A stretch of 64,000 nt of DNA, from positions 192,001 through 256,000 of the IMG/VR virus record IMGVR_UViG_3300031992_000005. One strand, written 5' to 3'. The notes under the pieces were generated by a model. It was not told the DNA's origin and ran no database searches. It saw nothing but the letters and a program-made list of their open reading frames with translations. Below are positions 26,936 to 59,264 of this stretch, one piece after another. This DNA comes from a virus. How positions within the stretch are numbered: the first letter of the stretch is position 1; each line of letters begins with the position of its first letter. Both the position numbers and the translations under genes were made by a program.

Positions 26936-27237
26936 CGTTCTCTTCACATAAATTCGCTACATTTATGCCGGGCAATGCCACAGCTAATCATCTCTGATTA
27001 GACGAGACTATATCTTCAGTAAATAATTACTGCCTACTTTTTCGAACACCCATCGCTTGTGCTCTACTCTACTCACTTCTTCAGGTTTCCCCTATGCTTT
27101 CGATAGTCGTTGAATAAGTTTATAACTTACTGCTGATTGACTCTATTCATTGGATTTTTACTTCTATTCGATAGTACCAATGACCTAACAAGTTGTTCCA
27201 GCAATTAAGTAGGTTTATAGTGCACCATAAACTAACA
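26936..27237 (-). mobile_element. group I intron 3 (302 nt, ORF-less)
   Basis: The - strand carries P AATTGCTGGAA (27196-27206), Q AATCAGCAG (27130-27138), R TTCAACGACTATCG (27101-27114) and S AAGATATAGTCT (27005-27016). The 5' exon ends in U and the intron ends in G. Confidence 0.75.
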
Positions 27238-27637
27238 ATGCACTGTAATAATAGGTTGTAATGGTTGCTTCCAACCATCTTTAATTGATGACCTAATATT
27301 ATTAAAGAATCCACTAGCCATAATTGTACTAGTTCCTCCTTGAATAGGTAAATTTACACCTAATCTTTTGATTCTGGCAATTATATTTTGCGCTTCTTTT
27401 TGATCTTTTGCTTTTGGCAAATATTCATAATACTCCCTTAACCTTAATTTGTCTCCTAACATGGTATTAATGTAACCATCATGATCTAATGGATACTGAC
27501 CCTGAGACTCCACATATTCCCTGAGCTTTGGAAAAGACTTATATAAACTCTGGATAATATTCTCAGCTTCTTCAACAGAACTATCTAGTCGAGCTGCTAA
27601 GGAATTTTTCCCTAAGCCGTACAATACACCCAAGAAT
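27238..27637 (-). CDS. DNA polymerase, family A - exon 3
   Basis: FLGVLYGLGKNSLAARL (motif B, K..NFG..YG), NLPIQGGTS, ends ..ITVH. Confidence 0.75.
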
Positions 27638-27932
27638 CATTACTACTCATAATTTCTTATGAGATTAGACTATATCATTATCCGATTATTCGGATAGGTT
27701 GCACTTCGGAATAGAGAATTTCACTCTAAACCTACTCCTCGGTTAAAATTATTTTAACGTCATAGGATAGTCGTTACACTTTCTTAGACTAATCTAAGCT
27801 TAGCACGGTATTGGCATATCTTATTATTAAGACTTAGCTTTCCACCGTTAGCACTAATAAATTAGTACACCCTAGATTTCTAGGTTCACAACCTTTTCAT
27901 TAACTAATTACTTAGTTATGCCACATCTATCT
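27638..27932 (-). mobile_element. group I intron 2 (295 nt, ORF-less)
   Basis: The - strand carries P AACGGTGGAAAG (27838-27849), Q CCAATACCGTGC (27803-27814), R GTAACGACTATCC (27765-27777) and S GATATAGTCT (27667-27676). P1 guide GTGG pairs with exon CCAU. The intron ends ..GTAATG. Confidence 0.75.
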
Positions 27933-28146
27933 ATGGTCTTGAATTTCTTTCTATAAGTCTTTTGTTCTTTTTTACTAAGGTTATTCCAACCTTCTTCACC
28001 TAAATATAGTTTCGAACTATATATGTATATGTCTTCTCCAGCGTTGAACTTACTTATTAGATCAGGATCCAAAGACGCGTCAATTTTGTTATCCTTAGAA
28101 CTTTTTATTTCTAAGTTCAATTGATTCTTAATTCTCAATTGTTCAG
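27933..28146 (-). CDS. DNA polymerase, family A - exon 2
   Basis: Starts CT GAA CAA TTG AGA. With exon 1 this gives ..YFDINSEQLRI (motif A, DYSQIELR-like), then GEDIYIYSS (DIH..TA) and RKKFKTI. Confidence 0.7.
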
Positions 28147-28414
28147 CATATATTTTCACCCTATTAGATAGGGTGGGGAACACTCGTGGTAGGATTATTC
28201 TATTCGTCACCTACTATGCGTTACACTACTAGGATACCTTTAATATTATCTTAGTTAGCACGGTATTGGCATCTCAGCTTTCACCGTTTTTGCTCCCTGT
28301 ACCCCGTAATATTACTATTACGGTGGGCAATTTTTTACCCCGCGCTCTTACAGATTGTTACCCTATAGGCTTTTTATCCTATAGTTCTATGGATTCATTT
28401 TATCCATAGCTCGG
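28147..28414 (-). mobile_element. intron-like unit A (268 nt), third element stacked at the motif-A site
   Basis: Starts CCGAGC, ends GAAAATATATG. P/Q-like block AAAACGGTGAAAGC..CCAATACCGTGCTAAC is identical to unit B and related to intron 2. I found no clear P1 guide. Confidence 0.5.
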
Positions 28415-28615
28415 CATATATTTTCATCCTAGATAACTAGGATGACGGACACTCGTGGAGAGATTATATTTATTCACTCTCTATGCTCTACACTACTTAC
28501 TTAACCTTTCGCAATTTAAATAAGTTAGCACGGTATTGGCATCTCAGCTTTCACCGTTTTTGCCCGTTTATTATCACTTACATTACTATAAGTGACGGCT
28601 AAATTTTAACCTCGG
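28415..28615 (-). mobile_element. intron-like unit B (201 nt), second element stacked at the motif-A site
   Basis: Starts CCGAGGTTAA, ends GAAAATATATG. GGTTAA could pair with exon-1 TTAACU once intron 1a is removed. Same P/Q-like block as unit A. Confidence 0.5.
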
Positions 28616-30154
28616 CACTACTACATTGTGTTCAGGAGGCACGTTACATCTCCCGGTTCTCACTTAGCTAAAACTAAGATGAACTCCTACATATCTCTAT
28701 GCAGATCAGACTATATCTTAATCTCATTTCTGAGATTCTTACCGTTTCCACTTAACGATTTCAAGTGTACTCCCATTACTGGGATAGTCGTTGGGGTTTA
28801 AGAATTTAATCAGTTAGTCGGGCTGATTTTCTTTTATTTTTTGAATAAGGACATTACTGTCTGTAATTACTTCAGTGAAATATCCATATTTTTCGTAAAT
28901 TTTTATTTCATTAGTGAAATATAATAATGGTATATTATTTTTCTTAGCATAATCGTACTTCAGATGATCCCTTTTTATAGCAATTTCTGAATAACGTTTA
29001 TCGTTAGGATCAAAATGTTGACACCCATGATACTCTACTAAGATATTATATTCTGGTAAATAAAAGTCAAACCTAAGATGTGATATATTCTTTAAATCTG
29101 GGTAAGTTTTCTCAGATGTAAATTCAATATTATTTCCCGTAAATAGGTCTGCCAAAAATAGTTCCCCATTAGAGTTAATGAGCGGGAATATGCTATCTTT
29201 ATCATCATCAGATAATAATAAGAACCTATAATAGCAATTACGAAATCTTCTATAAAAATCCTTCCTAGATAGGATATTATTGTCAGCAATAAATACCTTA
29301 AAATCTTCTACCGTATTAATATTAGAGTAATCTCTATTATTGTTTGGTAATAGACTTTCTTTCTCCTCTTTAGATAAGAGTCTACTAAATCTGCAATATA
29401 CTTGCTCAAATCTACGACAAAGATCTATTCTGGAGGTTATATTATTTTCTTGAATAAATGAACGAAAATCCTCATATGTATTTATATACGAATAATCTTT
29501 TAGCATACTAGGGAGAATTCTATTTTGATCTTCACTACTCAATTTAATAAACTTATTATATCCTCCTCGAAATCTTTTTTGAAAATCATAACGGCCTACA
29601 ATTTCGTATGTTTTAATGAATTTCCTAAAATCATCCTCAGTATTCAAAGTAGAGTAATCTGCCTTTTTTATAGTTCCTTTATAAGGTAAAATAGTTTCTT
29701 GCTCTTCCTTTGATAGAAAGTTTAAGAACCTAAGATAAGCCCCAGGATATTCAGTATGTAATGTTTTTCGAGAGTGAATATTATTAGTTTTAATAAACCT
29801 TTTAAAGTCGTTTGCAGTATTGAGATTAGAATAATTACCTAAGTTCGAAGGCAGTAATTTTTCTTGTTCATCATTACTTAATTTCTTGAAGCAATTATAA
29901 ACCTTTCTATACTCCTCTCTCAGCCTAGACCTCTTCTCAATACCATTATCTTTTATAAATTTTTTTATTTCCTCATAATCCATTTTTTTTTTAAATTTTA
30001 ATTTTTTTCGTTCTTCTTAAACCTGCTGATTAACTCTATTCCCTAGATTGTTACTGCCGTGACTAAATCGGCTAGTACTAGAGACCTAACAAGTCTTTCC
30101 AGCATTTAGTAAGTTTGTTTTTCATAAGGTCACCCTTATGTGACACTAGTTTCT
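28616..30154 (-). mobile_element. group I intron 1a (1539 nt) carrying a homing-endonuclease ORF
   Basis: The - strand carries P AAATGCTGGAAAG (30095-30107), Q AATCAGCAGG (30022-30031), then the ORF, then R AACGACTATCC (28782-28792) and S AAGATATAGTCT (28708-28719). Follows exon-1 U30155 and ends in G28616. Confidence 0.7.
28814..29983 (-). CDS. intron-encoded homing endonuclease (PD-(D/E)XK / Vsr-DUF559-like nuclease with 5 N-terminal repeats)
   Basis: Five repeats of about 55 aa ([DN]YS.[LI]NT..DF..FI..N.I.SR....R[FY]...Y..F..LS..E[QK]..[IL]LP). C-terminus HLRFDFYLPEYNILVEYHGCQHF. Sits between Q and R of the intron. Confidence 0.65.
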   Translation of the reverse strand: MDYEEIKKFIKDNGIEKRSRLREEYRKVYNCFKKLSNDEQEKLLPSNLGNYSNLNTANDFKRFIKTNNIHSRKTLHTEYPGAYLRFLNFLSKEEQETILPYKGTIKKADYSTLNTEDDFRKFIKTYEIVGRYDFQKRFRGGYNKFIKLSSEDQNRILPSMLKDYSYINTYEDFRSFIQENNITSRIDLCRRFEQVYCRFSRLLSKEEKESLLPNNNRDYSNINTVEDFKVFIADNNILSRKDFYRRFRNCYYRFLLLSDDDKDSIFPLINSNGELFLADLFTGNNIEFTSEKTYPDLKNISHLRFDFYLPEYNILVEYHGCQHFDPNDKRYSEIAIKRDHLKYDYAKKNNIPLLYFTNEIKIYEKYGYFTEVITDSNVLIQKIKENQPD

Positions 30155-32828
30155 AGTTAATGTCAAAATATGTTAGTAATTGGTCATCCCCACCATATAT
30201 GATATTTCCATTTTTGTTCCGAATTGGAGCAGGAATTAAGCAATTTTTGACAGGGCTATGTGAGGGAATCGTATGAAAACTTGATGACCAGCGTTTACTT
30301 GATTTTTTGAGTACTTCGTATGGAGTAAAATTCTTCTTTACTGCTCCTGGTTCATCCGGATCTGCATCTCTAATTGGAATATGATGCTCATCTTCAATTA
30401 CCCATTTTGCCCTCTTATTAAACATTCCATCTGGACCTACATACACACTTAACATTTTCGCATGTTTCTTATATATGAGGTAGTTGAGTGTGAATTTTCT
30501 CATAAAGTAGAAATCATTACTGAGATCTACCTCAGGATCAAATGGGCTTTCATAATTTAAGTAATCACCCTGATACTCTGGAAAAAGTTGTGTTTGTGTG
30601 TTAAATCCAAGAAAATCTGTCCAAATTTCCTTTACTTTATCTGCGGTTTGATATAAAACTGTCTCTACACCTTTCACACTAACTTTTTTTCCAAGTTTAG
30701 GGCTACCATAAAATTCGAATGCTAGGTCAAATACTTTCTTCGGGTATAATGGGCTTTCGTATTCGCCATTACTGTCATAATACTTTTTCCATTCATCTAA
30801 CATTTCTTGATAACCTTCATCTATATCAGTAATACCTCTACTTGAATAGAATTTTGTTGTCTCAGGTAACTGCTGGATACTTTCTGACATGGCAGCTAAG
30901 AAAGCAGTTTTTCCTTTAAGTCCAGGAATGATAGGATTAACCATCATATCATATACGATTTTATCATTCTGTTCTGGACTAAGACACATGAAATAATTAT
31001 CAGATAGAAACTTAGAATACTCCAAGAGATCCATTTTCTTACCAAAGATATATATTTTCTCTGGGATATTATGAATATCCTTAAGCTGTTTTTTATTTAT
31101 TTTTTCCAGCTCAGTATATATCTTTCGATAATACATGTATTTCTCAAGTTCTATATGCTTCTTATTAATCTTTCCCTCTGAATCAAATTTAAGACTATCA
31201 ATTCCGAAGAGATGTATTGTTTTTTCTGCCAGGACCCCTAAGAATTTCTTTTTCCTAATAATACCTTCGTCGATCTTACCCTTTAACTTAACTTCGCTTG
31301 CAGCTTGTCTAACAAAATCTACGAATTTTTCTCCAAAGTCCTGTCCATATTTCATAACAAGTCCTCCCTCATTTAATCCAGTTTCTGTTGAATCTAGGTA
31401 ATCGAGATTACTTGTTAAGATATATTTTAAGATTTCAATTATATTACCTTGAAAAAAGTTTCCTTCTTCCAATAGTTTTACAGCAATTGGCTTATATCTC
31501 TTTATATTAGTAGCCAAGGATTGATGTTTTTGCATCTTTATCCAACAAAGAGCTCTAGTTGCCCAAGTACTAGACCAAGCCATCATCTCCTTACAATACT
31601 TTTCAAATCTAAGTCTGAATGGCTCATCTATATAGTGGCCATGTGACATAAGTCTTGCGCCAAGTCTCAGGTTATCTAAGAAAACGTTGAAACACTCTTC
31701 TGTATACTCAGACTTTTTCTTAAGATAAATCATAAGAGTATAGAATGAGTCAAGGCAGCAATACTTTCCTAAGATTTCACTTGGGATAGGCATGAATTGA
31801 TTTCCCCAATACTCTAAGATCAGTTCCTTAAATTCATCTTCATATCCAGGATATCTCTTACAAATTTCTCCCCATTCAGGAGTATTTGTAAAGTTTTCTG
31901 GGGTTACTTTTAATTCTAGGTGAATGTCCTTCTTAAGTTTACCAACTTCCTCCAATAGCATGTGTTCAATTAAGTCACTAAGTCTATCGAAGTCAGAATC
32001 CCAAACTTTCACACCAAGTACTCTTTGAGCAGTCCATTTGAGAGAGTAGTTCTTCTCATGTAATCCATCTAGTACATTAACGACGGATGCATCTGATAGT
32101 TCATATAAGTCAACTCCCATTATTCTATGACTAACCTGATACTCGAATTGTAGGTTATAAGTCCAGATATGTTTCATTCTCTTAGATAGAAATTTTGCCA
32201 GTTTATCTAAGACTGCCCTATACCCTTCACTAGACTCTCCTACTTCATGTCTCAAGTCCGTTAAGCTAATAAAAGCCGCTTCTTTTGCTGTAGATATTGC
32301 AAAACCTGATACAAAGAACACTTTCTCCATTGGCATTCCACTAGTTTCATAGTCAAATCCAAAGTCAGTGTCCAATGGTAATGAGTCTACGTAATCAAGG
32401 AACCTCAATGCATCAGTCACAGTGTGAATTACGCACCACTTGAAATCATGGTAATCAACCTCTCTTGTAAAACTTGGACTTATAAAGTCTTCTAAGAGAC
32501 CTGGAATCAATGCCTGTTGTACATCTACTGCACATCTAACATAAGCTCCGCCTTCTAAGGATACTCTATAAATTCTGGAACAATCGAAGTAATTTTCACC
32601 ACGAATACCAAAGTGATACCTTTCTCTCAGGTAACTGAAGGCTTTAGCGCCAATTAATAATGCACCATCCCCTTCACCAAGTGCAAGAAGATCATTTCTT
32701 TGTTCTTCGTCCATCTTCTCTAGAAGTTCTAGAGGATAGACTCCACAACTTAGTTTTAATCCATATAATCCCACATAATCGTGGCATTCTTCTGAACTAA
32801 CTAAAACTATCCTTTTATTCATAATCAC
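30155..32828 (-). CDS. DNA polymerase, family A - exon 1 (3'-5' exonuclease plus N-terminal polymerase part)
   Basis: 891-aa ORF with FGFDYETSG (ExoI), NLQFEYQ (ExoII) and YCCLDSFY (ExoIII). Ends ..LLTYFDIN at the start of motif A. T30155 of the in-frame TAG is taken as the last exon nt. Confidence 0.75.
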
Positions 32829-47586: not shown

Positions 47587-48126
47587 ATGAACAAATTACT
47601 TATATCAAGAGAATATCATAACAGTGCAATGGAAATAAATTTGGCACTAGACACATTATCAGTGCCTAAAATTGTTTTATATAAGTTAGATAAGTATTCA
47701 CGTACCGTCAAGTGGTGGAAGTTAGATAGTTGGTTAAATTGGAATTATTATCCGGAACATATAGATTTTGTAACAATAGATAATATATTTTTAACCATAG
47801 GTTATTTTAGCATGTATGAATGTAAGTACATGCCTATAAAAAAACTAACCGATAGAACTTCACTGCACTTGGCATATGCTTGTAGTAAAGAAGTAAAAAA
47901 TATAACAATTTATTATCAAAGCATGTATGAAACCTATCTAAAATTAAATAGCTTAGATAATCACCATGTGACTGTATTTAATACTAAAAAAGATCTTATT
48001 AATTTTCTGAGTGAGTTCTATAAATACATAAGGGCGGATGATGAATGCCTATATAATTTCATGTTAAATCTATTCCGAGCTAATCACCTGATAAATGAAA
48101 CTGTACCAAGAATACCGATAAAATGA
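47587..48126 (+). CDS. tandem paralog family, member 1 of 12
   Basis: 179 aa, divergent. Core DNIFLTIGY and C-terminus LNLFRANHLI sit at the family positions. Confidence 0.55.
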   Translation: MNKLLISREYHNSAMEINLALDTLSVPKIVLYKLDKYSRTVKWWKLDSWLNWNYYPEHIDFVTIDNIFLTIGYFSMYECKYMPIKKLTDRTSLHLAYACSKEVKNITIYYQSMYETYLKLNSLDNHHVTVFNTKKDLINFLSEFYKYIRADDECLYNFMLNLFRANHLINETVPRIPIK

Positions 48127-48620
48127 AAAGTGACATTAAAGGAAGATTAGTATTACTCATTACTGAACGCAAACAAGAACTTGATTTTAAATACTGCAGT
48201 GTATGGGTAACTATAGAGAACTTAGTTCTTTCTAATTCAGGTAGTTACATATTTAATGCAGGCAAAAAAGATTATCCAGCTAGAATTGAAATACCAACCA
48301 CAAATGCAGATAAGTATCAGGTAGATCCCCTAAATCTATTAAATATAGGAAGCAACTTAGGATATCACCTGGGGTGGATTTCATTACCACAGTTTAAGTG
48401 TTTTTCTAGATGGAATGCAAAAAAGTGGTCAGCCAATCCTAGGATACGAGACTATAGCTTATGTTTCGCAAGAATTCCTTGGGGAAGTAGAAAATACTAT
48501 ATTTATGAATTAACTGGGGATGAATTAGCTCAGCTTTTCAAAAATTATATTAATACGATGGATAGCTATGCTATTCGAAACATATTAACGGAAATATTGA
48601 AGTATAATAAAGTAATATGA
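48123..48620 (+). CDS. tandem paralog family, member 2 of 12
   Basis: 165 aa with an ATGA overlap. Weak family match (LLNIGSNLGY; C-terminus EILKYNKVI). Confidence 0.5.
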   Translation: MKSDIKGRLVLLITERKQELDFKYCSVWVTIENLVLSNSGSYIFNAGKKDYPARIEIPTTNADKYQVDPLNLLNIGSNLGYHLGWISLPQFKCFSRWNAKKWSANPRIRDYSLCFARIPWGSRKYYIYELTGDELAQLFKNYINTMDSYAIRNILTEILKYNKVI

Positions 48621-49153
48621 ATACTGAATTAATCGTCTATAAAGATTACACTTCTACTAATAACTTTATTTATTTTATAAATTTCAATAAATTCAAAATC
48701 CCGATTGATCTATTAGATAACTCTCATTTGTGGGGAAACAGAATAATTATATCATCCTCTACAGCAATAGGTAAGCAGGTATTATCGGATAACTATCATA
48801 GATTGTACTTGGAAGAGTTTCCAGATATTGCCTTTTGCTTAGGCCAAAGTCCCAGTAATTTTAAGCACATGACTAAACGACAGTTGCATCTTAAGTTTCT
48901 GGGGAATCCTCGTTTTCTTGCTTCAACAAGCCAAGTATTCTATCGAAATTTTAAATGGAAATATTCGACAGGTGCACCTTGGGATTTATCAAGGAGTAGT
49001 ATATTCTTGTTTCAATCTTTACCATTAGATAAATGGTTCGTAGGTAAAATAATTTATGATTACCTATTCCGCGTTAAATTGCGTAATTGCACTCTTCCAG
49101 AAGATCTTAAAATCGCAGAACGCATATTTAACCTGAATGAGTGTTATGAATAG
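48617..49153 (+). CDS. tandem paralog family, member 3 of 12
   Basis: 178 aa with an ATGA overlap. N-terminus ELIVYKDY..FKIPIDLL; C-terminus AERIFNLNECYE. Confidence 0.55.
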   Translation: MNTELIVYKDYTSTNNFIYFINFNKFKIPIDLLDNSHLWGNRIIISSSTAIGKQVLSDNYHRLYLEEFPDIAFCLGQSPSNFKHMTKRQLHLKFLGNPRFLASTSQVFYRNFKWKYSTGAPWDLSRSSIFLFQSLPLDKWFVGKIIYDYLFRVKLRNCTLPEDLKIAERIFNLNECYE

Positions 49154-49580
49154 TGTTGAATTGACTCTATTTAAGAGATATGACGAAACTCATATGATTA
49201 TATATTTCCTAAAATTCGGGAAAATTACTTTACCTAATATCTCAAACCCTGTACGTGAAGTTTACTTAGACATTGGATTTGAATATTACAGGACTAAACA
49301 TGTTACATTAAGATATCTTCTGAACAACTTAGATTCGATCGTATATCGCTTTTCATTACCTAAGTTCAGGGGATACAATCAGGTAATCAGAAAGTTTAAA
49401 GTCTATAAAGACCCATTCCAAGTTATTTACTTAAAGGGGAAAGCTCTGGATAATGTATTAGAAAATTATCTTCAAGTAATCGATGATTGTTTAGAATATA
49501 CTAGTGTGAAAGAATATTCATTAATCAGGGACATTATCGTATGTAATCGAACCAATGATACAAGAACTATATATTATTAA
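49137..49580 (+). CDS. tandem paralog family, member 4 of 12
   Basis: 147 aa with a 17-nt overlap. Core EVYLDIGFEYY. Confidence 0.5.
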   Translation: MSVMNSVELTLFKRYDETHMIIYFLKFGKITLPNISNPVREVYLDIGFEYYRTKHVTLRYLLNNLDSIVYRFSLPKFRGYNQVIRKFKVYKDPFQVIYLKGKALDNVLENYLQVIDDCLEYTSVKEYSLIRDIIVCNRTNDTRTIYY

Positions 49581-50010
49581 TCTATTCGCAGTTAGAGATT
49601 TATACATGCACTATAAACGCTTATTGATTCCAAAATTATTTATATCTGCAGAAAAAAACGGTAGCTATAGAATTGGGGGTTATAAAAAAGATGACACATC
49701 TTCACTATTGGAAGTGAAAGACGTATATCTATATATGGGTTTTCATTTCTATGAAAATGATAAGGAAACCCAAACTATGAAATTCCTATCCCCTAGGAAA
49801 GTAAAAAACCTAATTTTTACATACCGTCCGGGTGCTGGGATTGGTAGATTTTATAAGAGTTTATTACCTACACCAACATATAGGTATTATCAAAAGACTG
49901 AATTAACGCCAGATCAGCTAGTTTATCTTAACCATATATATGTTCAAAATACAGCAAACGGTATCAGAGAAAAATTTCAGGAAATATTTAAACTGAATAA
50001 TATATGGTAG
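49555..50010 (+). CDS. tandem paralog family, member 5 of 12
   Basis: 151 aa. DVYLYMGFHFY, ELTPDQLVYL, C-terminus QEIFKLNNIW. Confidence 0.6.
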   Translation: MIQELYIINLFAVRDLYMHYKRLLIPKLFISAEKNGSYRIGGYKKDDTSSLLEVKDVYLYMGFHFYENDKETQTMKFLSPRKVKNLIFTYRPGAGIGRFYKSLLPTPTYRYYQKTELTPDQLVYLNHIYVQNTANGIREKFQEIFKLNNIW

Positions 50011-50483
50011 AACTATGTATTTTTAAGGGAAGTGTATTCCGGAGTTTCCTAGATATATACTTATATTTCTCTGAATTAAAAATTCCTGAGGTTTTTTTAT
50101 CTAGTACAGCTAAGAAAGTAGAAATTTTATCCGAATCCTCTACTAATTCTGATGAGATACTAACCTTCAATAATCTTTACCTGAGAATAGGTTATGTATA
50201 TAGTTCACAGGAAAGAATAAAGTCAATAACTTATAATTATTTTAAGAAAAAAATGTTAGGTAATCTATCACATGCAGTAGCAACAGAACTACTCTATGAT
50301 ATTCCTAGAACACCTTATTCATTTCCATTTCAGAGAATACAGATACCAGATGAATTGGTAGGTAGTATATTGAAACTTCATATTGAGCAGCTCTACTCCT
50401 TAGATATGTCAGAATACACTAGTGTATATAAAAAATCCGTTCATAGATGTGAGGAAATATTTAAACTGAATGATATATGGTAG
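50004..50483 (+). CDS. tandem paralog family, member 6 of 12
   Basis: 159 aa. MVELCIFKG.., ELKIPEVF, NLYLRIGY, C-terminus EEIFKLNDIW. Confidence 0.65.
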   Translation: MVELCIFKGSVFRSFLDIYLYFSELKIPEVFLSSTAKKVEILSESSTNSDEILTFNNLYLRIGYVYSSQERIKSITYNYFKKKMLGNLSHAVATELLYDIPRTPYSFPFQRIQIPDELVGSILKLHIEQLYSLDMSEYTSVYKKSVHRCEEIFKLNDIW

Positions 50484-50959
50484 AACTATGTATCTTTAAG
50501 GGACATTCAAACTTTTTTCCAGCTCTTATGTTAGATATATATTTACATTTCTCTGAATTAAAAATTCCTAAGGTTTTTATATATAGTACATATGAGAAAG
50601 TAGTAATTTTATCTGACTCCTCTACTAATTCTAATGATGAGATACTAACCTTTAATAATCTTTACTTGAAGATAGGTCATATATCTAGTTCACAAGAAAG
50701 ATTTAAACAAATGACCTACAATTACTTTAAGAAAAAGATGTTAGGTAATCTATTATACGCTATGGCAACAGAACTTTACCGTGATATTCCAAAAGAACTC
50801 TTCTTATTTCAGGAAATACAGATACCAGGTGAATTGGTAGGTAGTATATTGAAACACTACATCGAGCACTTTTATTCTACGGAGAGCGTACTTGGTGATA
50901 TATATATTAAATTCACCCGTATATATGAAGAGATATTTAAACTGAATAATATATGGTAG
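50477..50959 (+). CDS. tandem paralog family, member 7 of 12
   Basis: 160 aa. MVELCIFKG.., ELKIPKVF, NLYLKIGH, C-terminus EEIFKLNNIW. Confidence 0.65.
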   Translation: MVELCIFKGHSNFFPALMLDIYLHFSELKIPKVFIYSTYEKVVILSDSSTNSNDEILTFNNLYLKIGHISSSQERFKQMTYNYFKKKMLGNLLYAMATELYRDIPKELFLFQEIQIPGELVGSILKHYIEHFYSTESVLGDIYIKFTRIYEEIFKLNNIW

Positions 50960-51447
50960 AACTATGTATAAATAAAACAGGTGTAGATATATTCCCAGTC
51001 CGTTGGCATCAGCTAGATATATATTTATGTTTTTCTGAAATAAAAATTCCCAGGATTTTTATTTCTAGTATGGAGAAGACCGTAGAAATTTCACCAGAAT
51101 CTCCTACTCATTTTAACGATGACATATTAATCTTCAACAATATTTATTTGAAAATAGGTTATATATATAGTTTACGAGAAAGAGTGAAACTAGTGACTTA
51201 CAATTACCTTAAGAAAAAGATGTTGGATGATATGTCATCGTTGATGGCAAAAGAACTGCGCTATAATTTCCCAGAAACATCCTATTCTTTTCAGAGAATA
51301 CGACTACTAGATAAAGAAATAGAAAGTATATTGAAACATCACATCGAGTATCTTTACGCTATGAAGAACGTACTTGGTTATCTATATACTAGATATGTTT
51401 GTAGATATGAAGAAATATTCGAACTAAATGGATTATTATGCAAGTAG
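50953..51447 (+). CDS. tandem paralog family, member 8 of 12
   Basis: 164 aa. MVELCINK.., EIKIPRIF, NIYLKIGY, C-terminus EEIFELNGLL. Confidence 0.65.
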   Translation: MVELCINKTGVDIFPVRWHQLDIYLCFSEIKIPRIFISSMEKTVEISPESPTHFNDDILIFNNIYLKIGYIYSLRERVKLVTYNYLKKKMLDDMSSLMAKELRYNFPETSYSFQRIRLLDKEIESILKHHIEYLYAMKNVLGYLYTRYVCRYEEIFELNGLLCK

Positions 51448-51893
51448 AGTTGCGTACGTATTTGGAAGAATATAGTACCCATGTTTATTTAAGATTTCCC
51501 ACATTCAAGTTATACCATCGTTACGTTATTGAGCACAACGACGGATATCATATAGCACAAAACTCGGTGGTGTGGAGAAACCATATAATAGTAGAACAAA
51601 ATTTATATCTATTTCTAGGTGTAAAACCGTATCACGACTATAGACCAATTAAATTACAAACACGAAGACAAGTATATAATATGTTGGGACAAATATTTCA
51701 GCCTGGATTTGTTGGTCTTAGAAAAAATAATGATCACTTAGAAAAGGATTACTTTGTAAAAATAACCCTACCTGAAGAAAAAAGAAATGAAGTAGTGAAA
51801 TCACTAGTACAGAATCTTGTGCGTAATAATATTAATACTACTGCTATAGAGCAATTTAAGGAATTGCTTAAATTAAATGGTATACTTATATGA
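51438..51893 (+). CDS. tandem paralog family, member 9 of 12
   Basis: 151 aa. NLYLFLGV; C-terminus KELLKLNGILI. Confidence 0.6.
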   Translation: MQVELRTYLEEYSTHVYLRFPTFKLYHRYVIEHNDGYHIAQNSVVWRNHIIVEQNLYLFLGVKPYHDYRPIKLQTRRQVYNMLGQIFQPGFVGLRKNNDHLEKDYFVKITLPEEKRNEVVKSLVQNLVRNNINTTAIEQFKELLKLNGILI

Positions 51894-52384
51894 AAGAAGA
51901 TATTGTAGCTAAGTTAGTTATATCTAAAGGAACTTTTTCATACTGTTTAGCAGTTAATGATATAATCGTCCCAAAAGGATGTTTTGGTAATATGCTATTC
52001 TGTGTTTATAATGATGATGAAGAAAGATTCCGTAGTCTCTCTCCCGAGTTCTCAGGGAAATTACAAGGAACAGCCCATTTACGCCTGGGAACTATAAAAG
52101 AGAGATGTAAGTATATAACTAAACGGTCATTATTTAATATAATAAAGACCTCTCCATATATACACTCCCGTTTCTTTGTTAGTAATATGCAGGTAGCAAG
52201 TTTTCAAACTATATCACTAACTGAAACTGAATTATTAGACTTAGGTTCAATTCTTTTGGGGAAAATGAGAAACCATGTTACAGAGTATTATACTCCGAAT
52301 TATGAAGCTATATTTATAGCAAACGGGATATTTAAGAAAGAAGTATTTACTCCAATAACACCATATTGGAATTATGGCAGCTAG
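51890..52384 (+). CDS. tandem paralog family, member 10 of 12
   Basis: 164 aa with an ATGA overlap. HLRLGT, SLTETELLDLG, EAIFIANGIF. Confidence 0.6.
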   Translation: MKEDIVAKLVISKGTFSYCLAVNDIIVPKGCFGNMLFCVYNDDEERFRSLSPEFSGKLQGTAHLRLGTIKERCKYITKRSLFNIIKTSPYIHSRFFVSNMQVASFQTISLTETELLDLGSILLGKMRNHVTEYYTPNYEAIFIANGIFKKEVFTPITPYWNYGS

Positions 52385-52865
52385 GTTAGTGTTGATTAGG
52401 TATATTGAAGATGCTATTGACTATTACCTAATGTTAGATAAAATAACTATTCCTAATTCAGCTTTAGCGACATCCGGTATTAACTTAGTTGGTTCAAATG
52501 AAGAATGGTACCTATATTTAAAAGATAATGCAGTCAATGAAATACGGAAAACGACTACTGTATTTCTTTGTCGAAGTTATAGAAATATATATAAATATAC
52601 TACTAAACGCCTTTTTTATAAGTGGCTTAGAACGACTGGCTTATATAACATAAACTCAGAACCAATATTCTATGCTCACCTAAATCATTACCAGGAAGAG
52701 ATCTTTCAATCAATCCCCCTAACAAAAACAGAACTAGAAACAATCGGAACCCTGTTTTTGGAAAGACTTTTAGATAAAACTAGGTGTTACTATACCTCGG
52801 AATTTAATGAACGAAAAGAAAAGTATGAAATACTTTTTAAAGCAAATGGGATGTATAAAAAATGA
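52374..52865 (+). CDS. tandem paralog family, member 11 of 12
   Basis: 163 aa. IPLTKTELETIG; YEILFKANGMYKK. Confidence 0.6.
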   Translation: MAARLVLIRYIEDAIDYYLMLDKITIPNSALATSGINLVGSNEEWYLYLKDNAVNEIRKTTTVFLCRSYRNIYKYTTKRLFYKWLRTTGLYNINSEPIFYAHLNHYQEEIFQSIPLTKTELETIGTLFLERLLDKTRCYYTSEFNERKEKYEILFKANGMYKK

Positions 52866-53359
52866 GCGCTACTTTATTTATAGTTAAACATCCGGGTCCT
52901 CGCTCCATCTTTAATTATATTATACTGTTTGATGAAATCATTATACCAGAGGATGAGCTGGTCCGGGAGTGTATCATGATTTATGATAAACAGAATGACG
53001 CATATAAATGGCTAGCTGAGGAAACTCGTCCAGGAAAATATAAGGGAAATATTGCATTAAATATAGGTCGTGGACCAAGTAGAACTAAATTTCTGACTAA
53101 AAATATAGTTTTTAATTGGTTAAAGACTAGCAATCAGCTTAATAATTTTCCAAGATTCCTGATCAGATTAGATAAGGATTTTTGTTATTCATGGGAATAT
53201 ATATTTCAAACTATACCTTTGACAGGGGATGATCTTATTAAGATCGGAACTCGCCTTATTGATTATCCTCCTTACGAAGATATTAATAGGTATCGTTCTA
53301 CAGAATCATATAGAATTCTTTTCTCAGCAAACGGTTTATTTCCTCCCATAAATCCCTAA
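52862..53359 (+). CDS. tandem paralog family, member 12 of 12
   Basis: 165 aa with an ATGA overlap. IALNIGRG, IPLTGDDLIKIG, YRILFSANGLF. Confidence 0.6.
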   Translation: MSATLFIVKHPGPRSIFNYIILFDEIIIPEDELVRECIMIYDKQNDAYKWLAEETRPGKYKGNIALNIGRGPSRTKFLTKNIVFNWLKTSNQLNNFPRFLIRLDKDFCYSWEYIFQTIPLTGDDLIKIGTRLIDYPPYEDINRYRSTESYRILFSANGLFPPINP

Positions 53360-55604: not shown

Positions 55605-55736
55605 AAAAGGCCTTAAAACCTTATATGTAGAGAAGCAAAACAAAAGATAATTTCCCGCTCTCTATATATTCAACGAGAGCTCCCTAAAATAAAGAATGAG
55701 TTTACAATACATTAGGGAGCTTTCTCTTTTTTTTTT
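55605..55736 (+). ncRNA. ORF-less promoter-to-terminator unit, long form (about 105 nt transcript)
   Basis: AAAAGGCCTTAAAACCTTATATGTAG, then helices GCTCTC/GAGAGC and GAGCTCCCTA/TAGGGAGCT, then T10. Confidence 0.45.
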
Positions 55737-55738
55737 CT

Positions 55739-55842
55739 AAAAACCCCTTAATGCCTTATATATGATTAGTAAACGCTTTATGACAAAACAACATCAGTCA
55801 ATAGGAGATCACCTGTGATAGGCATATCTCCTATTTTTTTTT
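55739..55842 (+). ncRNA. ORF-less promoter-to-terminator unit (sRNA candidate)
   Basis: AACCCCTTAATGCCTTATATATG, then 39 nt, then GGAGATCACCTGTGATAGGCATATCTCC, then T9. Confidence 0.45.
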
Positions 55843-55943
55843 CATCCCCTTAATGCCTTATATATGTAAATTTTCCATATTAAAATTGTTATTTGTTAAT
55901 AGGGAAGGGATCGGTCCGTGAGGGATAGATCCCTAATTTTTTT
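55843..55943 (+). ncRNA. ORF-less promoter-to-terminator unit (sRNA candidate)
   Basis: CATCCCCTTAATGCCTTATATATG, then 41 nt, then GGGATCGGTCCGTGAGGGATAGATCCC, then T-run. Confidence 0.45.
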
Positions 55944-56046
55944 ATCCCTTTAAACCCTTATATATATAAGATACTCATAATAGATTTGTTTAAGGTTAAA
56001 AATTTTTTGGAGGATCGCCTGTGATAGGTATATCCTCTTTTTTTTT
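55944..56046 (+). ncRNA. ORF-less promoter-to-terminator unit (sRNA candidate)
   Basis: ATCCCTTTAAACCCTTATATATATAAG, then about 38 nt, then GGAGGATCGCCTGTGATAGGTATATCCTC, then T9. Confidence 0.45.
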
Positions 56047-56143
56047 ATACCCCTTAAATGCCTTATATATGTTAATAAATCAGTTATTTTTATTATATTA
56101 GTTAAACAAGGGGTCAGTCCGTGATGGATAGACCCTTTTTTTT
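56047..56143 (+). ncRNA. ORF-less promoter-to-terminator unit (sRNA candidate)
   Basis: ATACCCCTTAAATGCCTTATATATG, then 38 nt, then GGGGTCAGTCCGTGATGGATAGACCC, then T8. Confidence 0.45.
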
Positions 56144-56234
56144 ATTCCTCTTAAATCCTTATTAAGGAATACTCTCATTTTTAAGTTTAGTTATTAGGGG
56201 ATTAGTCCGGGATGGATAGATCTCCTATTTTTTT
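56144..56234 (+). ncRNA. ORF-less promoter-to-terminator unit (sRNA candidate)
   Basis: ATTCCTCTTAAATCCTTATTAAGG, then about 29 nt, then GGGGATTAGTCCGGGATGGATAGATCTCC, then T7. Confidence 0.4.
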
Positions 56235-56316
56235 ATTCACTATGTCACATGTTAGTAATTTAGTTTGACGAGAGAGGTCAGAGTCTGAGATAGATATAGG
56301 CCTCTTATTTTTTTTT
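56235..56316 (+). ncRNA. degenerate unit (hairpin plus T-run, no clear promoter motif)
   Basis: AGAGGTCAGAGTCTGAGATAGATATAGGCCTCT followed by T9. Confidence 0.3.
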
Positions 56317-56428
56317 GGTTTTTACTATATAAGTATCAGTAGTATCCTATTTCCATAAAAATATTAGGTAAATGCGAATAATTCCCGATAAATAGACAGT
56401 TCTAGACAATAGAAGTATAATGAAATTA

Positions 56429-56463
56429 GCTTTTTGCCAAAAAAGCCGTTGAGAGATCTCTAG
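56429..56463. repeat. inverted repeat, left arm (about 35 bp)
   Basis: GCTTTTTGCCAAAAAAGCCGTTGAGAGATCTCTAG. The reverse complement recurs at 57048..57083 with about 4 mismatches. Confidence 0.8.
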
Positions 56464-56640
56464 AAAATATATATTATATGTTTTAAGATTTTTAGCCAAA
56501 AAAATAATATAAAATTGGAAAATTCTATTGAATATTTAATAGAATTAACCATAGAAATATTATAAAATTTCTATATTTTTTATTTTTCAAAAATCGATAG
56601 CCATAAAAATATATTAAAAATATTATAAAAATTATAATAT
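56464..56640 (+). repeat. direct repeat copy 1 (about 175 bp, AT-rich, 3 iterons)
   Basis: ..ATATATTATATGTTTTAAGATTTTTAGCCAAAAAAATAA.., ..AACCATAGAAATAT.., ..AAAATCGATAGCCATAAAAATAT.. are collinear with copy 2. Confidence 0.7.
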
Positions 56641-56653
56641 AAGCATTCCATAG

Positions 56654-56827
56654 GGATCTCTCCTTTCAGTCAAGATCCACTCCAGCTAAAGCTGGGGAGT
56701 ACTAATTGAAAGAGATTAGAATTTCTTCAAGTTCTTAGAGAGAAAAAATATATAATATCTTCTCTTAGTAATTCCCAGGAATCCCAAAGGGATTTCTGAA
56801 CTGGATGCCGACTGAAAGGAGGTATCC
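56654..56827 (+). other. central structured element between the direct repeats
   Basis: Closing helix GGATCTCTCCTTTCAGTC / GACTGAAAGGAGGTATCC. Internal hairpins CTCCAGC taaa GCTGGGG and GAATCCC aaa GGGATTT. Higher GC than the flanks. Confidence 0.45.
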
Positions 56828-56867
56828 GTTGTATGTATGATATATTTAATATAAAATCAATAAAAGC

Positions 56868-57047
56868 TAAAAATATATTATATATAGTTTTAAGATTTTT
56901 AGCCATAAGAATGAATAGGAATTGAAGAAATTTACCGTATATTTGTATATTTCAGCCATAGAAATAAATAGAAATTACTATGTTTTTTATATCTTAAAAA
57001 ATCGATAGCCATAAAAATAAATAGATTTTATTAATAGTTTTCAATAT
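56868..57047 (+). repeat. direct repeat copy 2 (about 180 bp, AT-rich, 3 iterons)
   Basis: ..ATATATTATATATAGTTTTAAGATTTTTAGCCATAAGAATGA.., ..CAGCCATAGAAATAA.., ..AAAATCGATAGCCATAAAAATAA... Confidence 0.7.
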
Positions 57048-57083
57048 CTCCAGAGATCTCTGAACGGCTTTTTTTCAAAAAGC
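57048..57083. repeat. inverted repeat, right arm
   Basis: CTCCAGAGATCTCTGAACGGCTTTTTTTCAAAAAGC. Confidence 0.8.
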
Positions 57084-57155
57084 AGTATTTTTGGAGTTCA
57101 TGGGAAGTATATCCCTTAATTATATAATACTTCAATAAAAATTAATTTAATAGTT

Positions 57156-59264
57156 ATGAAAATCGAAACATTAGTAGTTCCAAAAGGAATTAGATTTCTC
57201 AGTGATTGGAAAGATTATGGTTTAGAAAAATTTCCATTCAAGCATATTTTAAATAAAACAATTACAGGTTGTGGATTTACAGAATACTGTATTCACTGTA
57301 ACCTTAATATTATTCTCTGTTCTCCAAGAAAAATTCTATTAGAGAATAAAGAAGATCAAAATAGTAATTTAGTTTTTTATGCTAGAAATTTATATGAACC
57401 TATAACAAATTATGAACAAGATCTAACAAAAGAAGTAAAAAGATTAGGTTCTATAAATGGAAACTATAATTTCGAAACAGAAGAGAAAAAGAAAGAGAGG
57501 CTAGAGAAAGAAAAGAAACTTAAAGAAAAGAGAGAAGCTGCAGTATTACAATTAAAAGAATCTGTAGTAAACTATTGGAGATCTTGTCAAGAAACTCCTT
57601 TCAATGAAGCCAAACCTTGTAAGATATTGGTAACATATGATTCCTTCAGACATGTCAAGGAAGCCTTAGGAGAAGATATAGAAAAATTCTACATTGTAGT
57701 TGACGAAATGCAGTCAATTTTGGTTGACTCACGCTTCAAGTCAGACTCTGAAGTAGAGTTCGTGAAAAGAACCGAAGACCTAGAAAAGGTTTGTTTTGTT
57801 TCAGCTACGCCAGTTATGGAAAAATATCTAGATATGCTAGATGAATTCAAAGATCTTCCTTATTATAGATTAGACTGGCAGTTAGAACAACCCGATAGGG
57901 TAGTTCATCCTAAAATTAATATTGGATACTTAGGTTATGGCGGGTCTATTCAAGCAGAGATAAAGAAATTAATTAACAAATATAGATCTGATAAGGGACC
58001 CGTTTATAGAAAAGTTGACCCAATAACAGGAGAAATAAAAGAGATAAAGTCTAGGGAAGTGGTTATTTATGTAAATTCTGTGAAAGATATATGTAAAGCC
58101 ATTAAGCAAAATAAACTGACCTTAGATGAATGTAACGTACTTGTAGCTAAGACAGATAAAAATGATAAAGACCTACGAAAAGTATTTAAAATAAGAAAGA
58201 AAAAGAATATTGATTTTTGTTGTATAGGTAAAGTTCCCGGTAAAAATGATCCCAGAAAAATGTTTACATTCTGTACTAGAACTGTATACCTTGGTGCAGA
58301 TTTTTACTCAGATAATGCTCAGACGTTTGTATTTAGTAACGCTAACATAGATTCCCTAAGTGTAGATATTTCTATGGATTTACCACAAATCTTAGGCAGA
58401 CAAAGATTAGATGAAAATCCGTGGAAAAGAGAAGCCACTGTATTTATCACTCTAAAATTAGGTAGATTAACTAAAGAAATGTTTGAGAAGACCTTAGAGC
58501 AAAAAATAAAAACAACGAAGTATTATTTGAAGCTTTATAACATGTCTTCCCAAGAACTAGGTGAGGAGGAAAAATTTATAAGACTCATTAAAGTAAATAT
58601 AAAAGCTTTATATTATTCACAAGACTATGTTTCCATAGATAATCATTCCGGTAAATCACCTAAACTGGCATTTAATAACTTAGTATTAATTTCTGATATG
58701 AGAGCTTTTGAAGTTCAACAAATGAATTATGCTAATAGGTTTACAGTATTCTCTGAACTAAATCAGCAAAATTTTTCAGTAATATTAAATAACGATAAGG
58801 TCAGAGATTTATTATCCGGTTATCAAAAGCTAACTGTATTTGAAGATAGAATGAAGTTTCTTTATGAAGTACTAGAGAAAAATAAAGATAATAAAGAATT
58901 ATCAAAGTCTCTTGTAGAATCTTTTCCAACCGAACTTCAAGGTTATTTTAATGTCCTTAGCATGAAAGAAATTAGGTCAACTTCCTTTAGAAAAAATAGA
59001 TTAGAAACTATTATTAAGAACAAATTAGCTATCAAAGATGCAGAACGACTAGTAAAAAAATTAGATGAAAACTTTGTTATAGGTAAATTTTATACGAAGG
59101 CTATAGCAAGAGAAATTCTTGGGAAAATATTCGATGAGATTGGATATAAGAAAAAAGCAAGGGCATCAATGCTAAGTGAGTGGTATAATATAAAATACAC
59201 GACTCAATATGATAGCAATTCAAAGACATCTGTTTCAGGAATTTTAATCATTTCTAAGCTTTAA
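57156..59264 (+). CDS. SF2 helicase-like protein with degenerate Walker A
   Basis: 702 aa. ITGCGFTEY sits where GxGKT is expected. YIVVDEMQS is DExQ-like and CFVSATP is motif III-like. Confidence 0.45.
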   Translation: MKIETLVVPKGIRFLSDWKDYGLEKFPFKHILNKTITGCGFTEYCIHCNLNIILCSPRKILLENKEDQNSNLVFYARNLYEPITNYEQDLTKEVKRLGSINGNYNFETEEKKKERLEKEKKLKEKREAAVLQLKESVVNYWRSCQETPFNEAKPCKILVTYDSFRHVKEALGEDIEKFYIVVDEMQSILVDSRFKSDSEVEFVKRTEDLEKVCFVSATPVMEKYLDMLDEFKDLPYYRLDWQLEQPDRVVHPKINIGYLGYGGSIQAEIKKLINKYRSDKGPVYRKVDPITGEIKEIKSREVVIYVNSVKDICKAIKQNKLTLDECNVLVAKTDKNDKDLRKVFKIRKKKNIDFCCIGKVPGKNDPRKMFTFCTRTVYLGADFYSDNAQTFVFSNANIDSLSVDISMDLPQILGRQRLDENPWKREATVFITLKLGRLTKEMFEKTLEQKIKTTKYYLKLYNMSSQELGEEEKFIRLIKVNIKALYYSQDYVSIDNHSGKSPKLAFNNLVLISDMRAFEVQQMNYANRFTVFSELNQQNFSVILNNDKVRDLLSGYQKLTVFEDRMKFLYEVLEKNKDNKELSKSLVESFPTELQGYFNVLSMKEIRSTSFRKNRLETIIKNKLAIKDAERLVKKLDENFVIGKFYTKAIAREILGKIFDEIGYKKKARASMLSEWYNIKYTTQYDSNSKTSVSGILIISKL

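Follow-up and report, generated by a model that had tools for sequence, protein, structure and literature searches.

The Bacteroidota are a dominant gut phylum, and their small RNA (sRNA) biology is only now being worked out. To our knowledge, few phage-encoded regulatory RNAs have been described, and almost none of them originates from a Bacteroidota phage. The FopS sRNAs are 65 to 70 nucleotides (nt) long and consist of a single-stranded 5' seed and a terminator hairpin (PMC11697453). B. thetaiotaomicron has 14 copies, which pair with susC-type mRNAs at the start codon and so keep them from being translated; RbpB counteracts FopS and contacts its 5' part instead of the hairpin (PMC11697453). 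The present study concerns array B, a row of seven units without open reading frames (ORFs) in a stretch of 64,000 nt from an uncultured gut jumbo phage with a genome of ~350 kb (IMG/VR record IMGVR_UViG_3300031992_000005, positions 192,001 to 256,000). This stretch is called the window, and all coordinates refer to it unless a contig is named. Judged by their promoters, hairpins and conservation, the units are fairly likely to be functional sRNA genes.

Several other systems invite comparison. RNA anti-CRISPRs (Racr) and ToxI antitoxin repeats are phage-borne arrays of short structured RNAs. The Escherichia coli sRNA 3'ETS-leuZ is released from a tRNA transcript, and species 1 and 2 of phage T4 are small stable RNAs encoded in the phage tRNA cluster. 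The boxB element of lambda and P22 is a short stem with a GNRA-like pentaloop that is bound by the N protein. Promoter-early stem-loop (PeSL) cassettes of T4-type phages, composed of a terminator hairpin and a promoter, mediate modular shuffling (PMC2839356, PMC4122927). A literature search revealed no paper describing phage arrays of the present type or their promoter string.

Array B is a tandem array of ORF-less units

Array B comprises seven units arranged head to tail at 55605 to 56316 on the + strand. It starts 8 nt downstream of the stop (55597) of an FtsH-like ORF of 743 amino acids (aa), which has a weak Pfam Peptidase_M41 match and a PHROG match to ATP-dependent protease. Splitting the region at its T-runs gave unit lengths of 82 to 147 nt. 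Units B1 to B5 share one build, namely a promoter of 21 to 22 nt, an AU-rich segment of 29 to 42 nt, a hairpin of 26 to 29 nt and a run of U7 to U9. At every junction, the next promoter begins 0 to 10 nt downstream of the U-run. No ORF of 27 aa or more is present in the interior of the array; the sole + strand ORFs, of 22 and 26 aa, straddle unit borders. An earlier note on this DNA had described seven ORF-less + strand units located 8 nt past the stop of a protease gene, and the coordinates and the ORF check bear this description out; the promoter and hairpin strings that it quoted occur exactly in the window sequence. The sequence comparisons reported below show array B to be a real, non-random ORF-less array with a promoter shared with tRNA genes, with conservation of the array at the strain level and with conservation of the unit type in a phage clade.

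A promoter motif is shared with tRNA genes

The promoter consensus, CCCYTTAAAnnCTTATATATG, spans ~21 nt. Its pattern was matched 27 times in the window, compared to 3.7 expected matches and a maximum of 9 in 100 shuffles. The motif ends 5 nt upstream of the 5' end of tRNA-Lys and 9 nt upstream of that of tRNA-Arg, and tRNA-Met and tRNA-Leu are preceded by the variant CCTTACTA(A/C)TG. Because the motif ends 5 to 10 nt before mature tRNA 5' ends, initiation is predicted to occur within a few nt past ...TATATATG. In related jumbo-phage contigs from IMG/VR, the motif is located 25 to 45 nt upstream of ORFs and also upstream of tRNAs. From this distribution, the motif is a putative clade-wide phage promoter. 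The -7 box of the Bacteroidota is TAnnTTTG, and the promoter end TATATATG resembles it.

Each of the four tRNA genes of the window (19920 to 22458; 7735 to 7811) has its own promoter copy, which ends 5 to 10 nt upstream. Interpretation as an archaeal promoter with a BRE/TATA-like motif was rejected because the motif end lies only 5 to 10 nt before the tRNA 5' ends. A C/D-box or K-turn interpretation was also rejected, since the strands do not fit a K-turn.

The units end in a conserved, covarying hairpin

A covariance model, R1, was built from 26 hairpins including their U-runs. The hairpin core pattern was matched nine times in the window, compared to 0.01 expected matches. R1 detected 15 window copies with at least 30 bits, two of them outside the training set, and all of them belong to array B or to two further arrays, A and C, described below. 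Each of the 15 hairpins follows an ORF-free segment of at most 48 nt. The R1 scan of the window found no hairpin of 30 bits or more behind any ORF, the terminators behind ORFs scoring below 19 bits. Terminator-like sites outside the arrays likewise remained below 19 bits, except for a weaker R1-type hairpin in the 3' trailer of tRNA-Arg (21143 to 21181, - strand; 22.8 bits, E 0.008).

In an alignment of 35 copies from the window and other loci, 93.1% of the cells were paired, compared to 73.6% in shuffles; the alignment was fitted to the model, which favors structure, but covariation of the outer stem is still plain in the raw sequences. The best slid register of the alignment reached 54% pairing. 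Double-sided changes occur in 10 of the 11 hairpin pairs, and the covariation score was reached by none of 500 shuffles. The outer stem varies freely and is separated from the inner stem by an A/A mismatch. The inner module is near-fixed (G-U, U-A, C-G, C-G), with a compensated type 2 form (C-G, C-G, U-A), and the loop reads G-N-G-A-N with invariant G, G and A. Of the 31 distinct rows, 30 keep the inner G-U pair. Since the opposite strand would have C-A at this place, the RNA is expected to be made from the promoter strand, which is the + strand for array B. A run of 7 to 10 U residues follows the hairpin, as in an intrinsic terminator, and a GC-containing hairpin with a U-run on the putatively transcribed strand was found in all units. 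On the evidence of these alignments, the hairpin is a genuine strand-specific RNA structure with compensatory changes.

Several resemblances to tRNA were observed. The tRNA-Arg gene (21211 to 21285) is followed by a 33-nt trailer and then by the R1-like hairpin, an arrangement that may represent a dicistron of tRNA and sRNA. In the hairpin, the conserved 3' half, UGGAUAGA(U/G)C (for example, at 56116 to 56133), equals the 3' half of the tRNA-Arg D-arm, CUGGAUAGAGC. A hairpin from a Bacteroidaceae metagenome-assembled genome (MAG; L152) reads like a whole D-arm (GCUCAG...GGAUAGAGC) with an 8-nt insert. This likeness could reflect chance, common origin or mimicry.

Variable 5' segments differ from mRNA leaders

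The segments between promoter and hairpin are 27 to 48 nt long in the 19 units of the family (mean, 36.6; standard deviation, 6.2), with a G+C content of ~18%. U outnumbers A (312 versus 256), and CAU outnumbers AUG (20 versus 12). The leaders upstream of phage ORF starts have the opposite bias, with A in excess of T. In minimum free energy folds, the 5' part is largely unpaired and precedes a 3' hairpin; short weak helices were present in five of six small units. The paralogs A4 and B5 have the promoter, the first 14 nt (AAUACUCUCAUUUU) and the hairpin in common and differ in the rest, and units A2 and D2 share the 5' end GUAAUGUUUAUUUU. A scan of IMG/VR with the seed TTATATATGNAAAAYATTC yielded only two relevant contigs, L169 and L172; the other matches lack the upstream box of the promoter.

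Individual units of array B

Unit B0 (55605 to 55736) has a deviant promoter-like element, GCCTTAAAACCTTATATGTAG (55610 to 55630), which matches the pattern with three mismatches. Its predicted transcript body of ~106 nt (55631 to 55736) folds with -23.6 kcal/mol (z, -3.3) and ends in a U10 run, which is preceded by the long 3' hairpin GAGCTCCCTAA...TTAGGGAGCTT.

Unit B1 (55744 to 55842) begins with an exact promoter match, CCCCTTAATGCCTTATATATG (55744 to 55764). Its AU-rich variable 5' segment of 39 nt (55765 to 55803) folds into no more than a single weak helix of 4 bp and otherwise stays largely unpaired, and the hairpin with its U-run (55804 to 55842) has the type 2 inner stem CCU/AGG and the loop GUGAU (R1, 38.5 bits). 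Unit B2 (55846 to 55943) also has an exact promoter match (55846 to 55866). It continues with a variable segment of 40 nt that includes UUUUCCAU (55867 to 55906; delimited by the T-run split and the fold) and with the hairpin GGGAUC-G-GUCC-GUGAG-GGAU-A-GAUCCC and a U-run (55907 to 55943; R1, 51.7 bits). The promoter of unit B3 (55946 to 56046) matches with one mismatch (55946 to 55966); the 42-nt variable segment, CUCAUAAUAGAUUUGUUUAAGGUUAAAAA (55967 to 56008), gives an Rfam FopS score of 17.8 bits, and the type 2 hairpin with its U-run (56009 to 56046) reaches 48.7 bits with R1.

Unit B4 (56050 to 56143) consists of the promoter CCCCTTAAATGCCTTATATATG (56050 to 56071), found in the promoter pattern search, a variable segment of 38 nt (56072 to 56109), delimited by T-run split and fold and scoring 23.1 bits with full-length Rfam FopS, and a hairpin with a U-run (56110 to 56143; R1, 54.5 bits). 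Unit B5 (56147 to 56234) has the variant promoter CCTCTTAAATCCTTATTAAGG (56147 to 56167; three mismatches), which recurs in its paralog A4 and in the contig L227. The shared 14 nt open its variable segment of 29 nt (56168 to 56196), and the hairpin and U-run follow at 56197 to 56234 (R1, 53.9 bits). Unit B6 (56235 to 56316) has a divergent hairpin, GAGAGGUC..UCUGAGAUAGA..GGCCUCU, with a U9 run, and R1 recognizes it with 30.3 bits although it was outside the training set. No promoter match within three mismatches was found in B6. The view of the earlier note that this unit has lost its promoter holds roughly, except that the 5' region retains a weak resemblance, TTCACTATG, to the CCTTACTA(A/C)TG promoters of tRNA-Met and tRNA-Leu.

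A strain variant retains the array, and the unit type recurs in the clade

A strain variant with a few percent divergence (L153) has the same array except for one exchanged unit. Units B1, B2, B4, B5 and B6 have unchanged 5' parts, and differences cluster at the hairpin-proximal end and in the stems. The variable segment of B1 is identical, that of B2 is identical over its 5' 36 nt, B6 is 100% identical, and the segment of B5 has one substitution, at its 3' end. The B4 stem shows a compensatory change from G-C to A-U. B0 retains its 3' hairpin and has an altered 5' hairpin. In unit 3, the variable part of B3 is replaced by that of C1, joined to a type 2 hairpin. The divergence of this variant is too low for a rate test.

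An identical FtsH-like protein is encoded on contigs of 185 kb and 354 kb; the next homologs have at most 44% identity and lie on contigs of up to ~430 kb. The FtsH-like loci of three relatives (~40% identity) have ordinary genes directly downstream and no array. A 254-kb relative (~50% amino acid identity) has two promoter-driven units of ~240 nt syntenic with array B and no R1 hairpin. Synteny of the array, which the earlier note had proposed to check, therefore exists at the strain level, where L153 keeps it, and not beyond. A peptide-pattern scan of IMG/VR for the FtsH-like protein confirmed no relatives, and blastn and tblastn searches of GenBank phages gave no match for the array region or the FtsH-like protein; GenBank phage helicase matches had only 25 to 29% identity.

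Eight or more other jumbo-phage contigs with the shared promoter carry R1-like units, either alone or in pairs. In these related contigs (95 to 400 kb), a unit consists of the promoter, an AU-rich segment of 30 to 50 nt, an A-GUCY-GNGAN-RGAU hairpin and a U-run. The model detected units in L169 (two, in tandem), L175 (two), L180, L176/L188-L190, L193/L195, L227 and L228; in L227, the unit has a promoter of its own and comes after a hairpin in a tRNA trailer. Units in L172 (14.3 bits) and L201 (18.6 bits) are below significance and were recognized by eye. For the hairpin scans of IMG/VR, a degenerate 14-base pattern returned more than 118 single matches, apparently by chance, and a stricter pattern with a U-run worked. 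The inner module was also found in phage-like contigs with tRNAs (L155, L162) and once in the Bacteroidaceae MAG. By these comparisons, expansion to arrays is peculiar to this phage, and the unit type is a property of the clade.

In a 66-kb phage (L159/L163), a 28-aa ORF is likewise closed off by the exact inner module. The L159 copy was considered as a free-standing FopS-like sRNA and rejected, as its "5' part" overlaps the end of that ORF. In the Bacteroidaceae MAG, which was obtained from roe deer cecum, the single R1-type hairpin lies ~150 nt from a strong abiF RNA motif on the opposite strand (L152 3373 to 3413, - strand, and 3564 to 3600, + strand; abiF, 58.5 bits versus a cutoff of 37). 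Another ORF-less unit of ~80 nt, GAAAAAGGAAUUUCAAUUCUUUUUUAAUUCUUACAAAUGUAUGUAAGAAAAAAA..., occurs in near-identical form between two promoter copies in many jumbo-phage contigs of 50 to 400 kb (L167, L168, L170, L178, L181, L183, L184, L191, L192, L197-L200, L202 and L204). With a hairpin unlike R1, it may represent another conserved small RNA of the clade.

Further arrays in the same phage

Array A (25704 to 26560, - strand) contains six like units, A1 to A6, and the additional element A7; the earlier note had pointed to such an array of like architecture on the opposite strand at 25.9 to 26.5 kb, and its observation is reproduced here. Array C (24900 to 25368, + strand) contains three like units, C1 to C3, and is convergent with array A, from which it is separated by an 83-aa ORF (25655 to ~25404, - strand) and a bidirectional terminator. 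Array D lies ~2 kb left of window position 1 on the contig L161 (3144 to 3560, - strand), which overlaps the left end of the window with ~96% amino acid identity, and adds four more units. The family totals 19 units, namely, the 15 R1 matches of the three window arrays and the four units of array D. The 10 kb that adjoin the window on its right side yielded no further unit. The earlier note had described two arrays with transcripts running symmetrically outward. This description fails, since at least four arrays exist and array C runs toward array A, and the symmetry argument against random decay, made with array C missed, falls with it.

The first unit of array D has no promoter of its own and is located directly behind a tRNA-like 3' end that ARAGORN does not call. 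Array D follows a sub-threshold Rfam group I intron match (L161 3619 to 3898; 40.7 bits versus a cutoff of 50; E 4e-7). A7 (25704 to 25850, - strand) is a promoter-driven candidate RNA of ~147 nt that has two helices and a U-run and is GC-rich, although the genome has only 33% GC; it has no Rfam match, and its fold z-score is -1.9.

Target search and host

A tentative target was found for unit A6, at 49101 to 49160 (+ strand), in the translation start region of ORF 49137-49580, with the start codon spanned. With a duplex of -27.6 kcal/mol (z, -7.5), no other non-self site on either strand of the window pairs better with A6. Sliding windows over both strands and 20 kb of extensions gave this pair alone. 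Best non-self z values of most other units range from -4.3 to -5.9; C2 reaches -6.7 at a site antisense to coding sequence. RNAduplex analysis of 86 window start regions showed real 5' parts to be no better than shuffled ones, except for A6. The only credible target in the window belongs to a unit of array A. A 10-nt match of A6 to the start of the FtsH-like gene was rejected as a target, being within chance. ORF 49137 is one of twelve back-to-back ORFs of 147 to 179 aa without Pfam match (47587 to 53359, + strand), at least eight of which fall into two paralog groups with 20 to 66% identity.

A Shine-Dalgarno-like 4-mer is present upstream of 4 of 63 ORFs, compared to a background of 11%, and the leaders are A/T-rich. 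Because the genome lacks Shine-Dalgarno sites, a Bacteroidota host is probable. One ORF contains a BspA-type LRR domain, and the hairpin is also present in the Bacteroidaceae MAG. Jug phages have Bacteroides or Phocaeicola as predicted hosts and relatives in ruminants (PMC12880540). The relatives of the present phage match Jug phages in size and habitat.

The units as sRNA genes, and alternative explanations

We favor, at about even chances, the explanation that the units are stand-alone genes for trans-acting sRNAs of 65 to 85 nt and that the array is a paralogous sRNA gene cluster. Transcription would start within ~5 nt after ...TATATATG and stop at the U-run. The single-stranded 5' part would be the variable functional part, pairing with mRNAs of the host or the phage where these are AU-rich around the site of translation initiation. 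Such pairing would block initiation in the manner of Bacteroides GibS and FopS on mRNAs without Shine-Dalgarno sites. The 3' hairpin would supply termination and stability, and probably a protein handle, and recombination at the conserved promoter and hairpin would shuffle variable parts between arrays. We infer expression as sRNAs of this size with antisense 5' seeds in a Bacteroidota host; least secure in this chain are the targets and the mode of action by antisense pairing.

Several observations weigh against this explanation. Promoter activity, transcription start and termination are all inferred from the DNA, and the assignment to a Bacteroidota host is a probable one. Array B units have no outlier complementary site in the window plus 20 kb of flanks (~85 kb); their best non-self sites (z, -4.3 to -5.9) are at noise level and are equaled by shuffled seeds at start regions. 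Should array B have targets, they are to be sought in the host or in the other ~75% of the phage genome. Part of the similarity of 5' ends across phages (UAAAA...) is seen at mRNA starts, too, and may be a promoter-proximal preference instead of a seed. The hairpin is not exclusive to ORF-less units, as it occurs in tRNA trailers (window, L161, L227) and behind the 28-aa ORF of L159/L163. The likeness to FopS is weak and patchy, with D2 and B3 standing out, and the Rfam scores are far below the FopS cutoff of 56 bits.

The units could instead be PeSL-like terminator-promoter cassettes that act as insulators and recombination hot spots, with 30 to 45 nt of filler and a short RNA by-product. We consider this doubtful. 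Each U-run abuts the next promoter and forms a terminator-promoter composite at every junction, and throughout the 18- to 26-kb region, tRNAs and small ORFs form monocistronic units that are bounded by junctions of this kind. The exchange of a variable part between arrays (unit 3 of L153 carries that of C1) is what PeSL shuffling predicts, and arrays A and B each close a long block of genes, a position in which read-through would be halted by stacked terminators. PeSL recombination, however, deletes intervening DNA and leaves 19 cassettes with non-homologous spacers of 36.6 ± 6.2 nt unexplained. The special hairpin is absent from ORF-flanking junctions in the window, all of which score below 19 bits, and its inner stem and loop are conserved across phages of ~40% protein identity, beyond the needs of termination. 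Filler would also not account for spacers in which U exceeds A and 5' ends are conserved.

A second alternative, which we regard as unlikely, makes the hairpin the active, protein-binding part, either as a decoy that titrates an RNA-binding protein of the host or phage (for example, an RbpB-like RRM protein) or as a bank of terminators with read-through under the control of a hairpin-binding factor; the 5' segments would then be of little importance. The invariant loop G, G and A, the near-invariant G-U pair with a conserved A next to it, and the free outer stem would suit a binding site, and one inner module recurs on differing outer stems in unrelated contexts. The FopS terminator loop consensus is also GuGaa, and FopS binds RbpB (PMC11697453). 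High copy number fits titration, and the target searches for array B were empty. On the other side, a Pfam scan of 50 of 77 window ORFs (at least 100 aa) detected no RNA-binding domain and no candidate binding protein, and RbpB contacts the 5' part of FopS, not the hairpin (PMC11697453). A decoy needs no variable 5' segment of its own with constrained length, and a read-through gate makes little sense with a promoter before each terminator.

A small probability is assigned to a more far-reaching version of the sRNA explanation, in which a clade of gut jumbo phages uses modular sRNA cassettes with ~20 exchangeable guides per genome and a protein-bound handle to reprogram translation in the Bacteroidota host. 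The 3' hairpin would be the handle for a host or phage protein, and the 5' guide of ~35 nt would be expressed from a strong phage promoter and exchanged between arrays by recombination at its conserved flanks. The guides may imitate host FopS-type sRNAs and shut down SusC-like outer-membrane transporters. These transporters serve in nutrient uptake and as phage receptors, and silencing them would amount to host takeover or superinfection exclusion.

The units might also be relics in which a tRNA or ORF was deleted and promoter, leader or trailer, and terminator were left, but this is very improbable. The tRNA-Arg and tRNAs of L161 and L227 are indeed followed by a trailer of 33 to 44 nt and a like hairpin, and mRNA leaders from this promoter are also 25 to 45 nt long and AU-rich. 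Relics would not be expected as 19 tight tandem copies that a strain variant retains and that have counterparts in distant relatives, with hairpins that evolve by compensation and a base composition opposite to that of leaders. The arrays have no ARAGORN or Rfam tRNA match; ARAGORN and Rfam RF00005 find four tRNAs elsewhere in the window and none in the arrays. The earlier note offered no function for the units. Its opinion that they are not products of random decay is upheld on these other grounds, as tRNA-type promoter, covarying hairpin and conservation make them resemble autonomous small transcription units.

A CRISPR-like or repeat-RNA system (mini-CRISPR, Racr or a ToxI-type array) is hardly credible, since the alternation of conserved and variable parts with a period of ~100 nt is similar only superficially, each unit has its own promoter and terminator, stems differ and covary, the variable parts measure anything between 27 and 48 nt, the neighboring genes include no cas, toxN or abi gene, and no Rfam CRISPR-DR or ToxI match was obtained.

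With the units read as sRNA genes, the array constitutes a new sRNA family with an unusual tandem organization of autonomous genes on a phage. At least 19 units per genome in a clade of gut phages of 95 to 400 kb would then make it one of the largest families of non-coding RNAs in phages. The arrays would be a readable list of what the phage silences, and would link jumbo phages to host regulation, if the 5' parts are seeds. The promoter, the terminator hairpin and model R1 could be used for annotating these phages, the proteins of which are almost all ORFans.

Neighboring features of the window

Downstream of array B, an 840-nt non-coding stretch (56316 to 57156) contains a direct duplication of ~160 nt with a spacing of 407 nt (56480 to 56640 and 56887 to 57040) and a long-range inverted repeat of 33 nt (56432 to 56464 with 57049 to 57081). 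Its structured core (56654 to 56827) gives a full-length, sub-threshold match to the Rfam RT-14 RNA (29.1 bits versus a cutoff of 48.1). Neither Pfam nor PHROG gave a match for the 702-aa ORF downstream of this stretch.

A family A DNA polymerase gene is apparently in pieces at 26546 to 32828 (- strand), with segments at 30153 to 32828, 27232 to 27633 and possibly 26546 to 26947. An HNH homing-endonuclease ORF (28814 to 29983) lies between the pieces, which fits interruption by an intron or intein, as reported for Jug phages. Auxiliary genes encode a formate/nitrite transporter family protein (12327 to 12941, + strand), a nucleoside 2-deoxyribosyltransferase-like protein (11789 to 12349, + strand) and an HD-domain protein (10099 to 10605, - strand).

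Comparison with known systems

Array B differs from Racr and ToxI in its non-identical repeats, in the promoter and terminator of each unit and in the lack of an associated cas or toxin gene. The near-identical repeats and constant spacers of CRISPR and Racr arrays contrast with stems that covary and with spacers of 27 to 48 nt. The identical repeats of ~36 nt that stand beside a ToxN/AbiQ toxin in ToxI systems contrast with a period of ~100 nt and variable content; the neighbors of array B are the FtsH-like protease and the 702-aa ORF without Pfam or PHROG matches. The hairpin is similar to boxB in its short stem, GNRA-like pentaloop and invariant G and A positions. It differs in the extra base 3' of the GNGA tetraloop and in the U-run that follows, which marks a terminator and not a nut site, and no N-like protein was identified.

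As with tRNA-derived sRNAs, a hairpin-ended segment is found 3' of tRNA-Arg here and 3' of tRNAs in L161 and L227, and, as with the RNAs of phage tRNA clusters, the units share the tRNA promoter and adjoin the tRNA region. Unlike tRNA-derived sRNAs, most units have their own promoter, no tRNA and a far higher copy number. PeSLs are resembled in two respects, namely, a stem-loop directly followed by a promoter, repeated in a plastic region (also around tRNAs and small ORFs at 18 to 26 kb), and modular exchange between copies, which the unit swap in L153 fits. PeSLs flank ORFs and have short degenerate stem-loops, whereas the present cassettes enclose ORF-less segments of ~37 nt, and their hairpin is long, conserved in sequence across the clade and, at 30 bits or more, confined to ORF-less units in the window.

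Rfam at gathering thresholds reported only four tRNAs in the window, and lax E-values yielded sub-threshold matches only. The sub-threshold families that recur across units are FopS (RF04319) and GibS (RF04182), both Bacteroides sRNAs. Full-length FopS matches (1 to 71) scored 23.1 bits for B4, the highest sub-threshold Rfam score inside array B, 17.8 bits for B3 and 16.8 bits for B2, a range also reached by unrelated families. Local alignment to the FopS 5' consensus exceeded shuffles for D2 (p = 0.001), B3 (0.015; the best in array B) and L156 (0.024), out of 24 segments. The FopS R1' seed GUGUUUUUCAUAGUAUUAG (PMC11697453 and its supplement) is absent from array B. The FopS promoter is a canonical sigma-ABfr promoter and the FopS genes are dispersed on the chromosome, whereas the phage units use the phage-clade promoter and stand in tight tandem arrays, with a two-tier stem and a conserved inner module that FopS lacks. 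In architecture, the folds of B1 to B6 correspond to FopS and GibS, with ~65 to 70 nt, an AU-rich single-stranded 5' region and one terminator hairpin. The FopS terminator consensus loop in Rfam is GuGaa, and array B loops read, for example, GUGAU. Like FopS, the phage units form a multi-copy paralogous family, and the ORFs of the phage are poor in Shine-Dalgarno sites, as is the Bacteroidota phylum that hosts FopS. The units are not members of the FopS family, and FopS is the best functional model for them.

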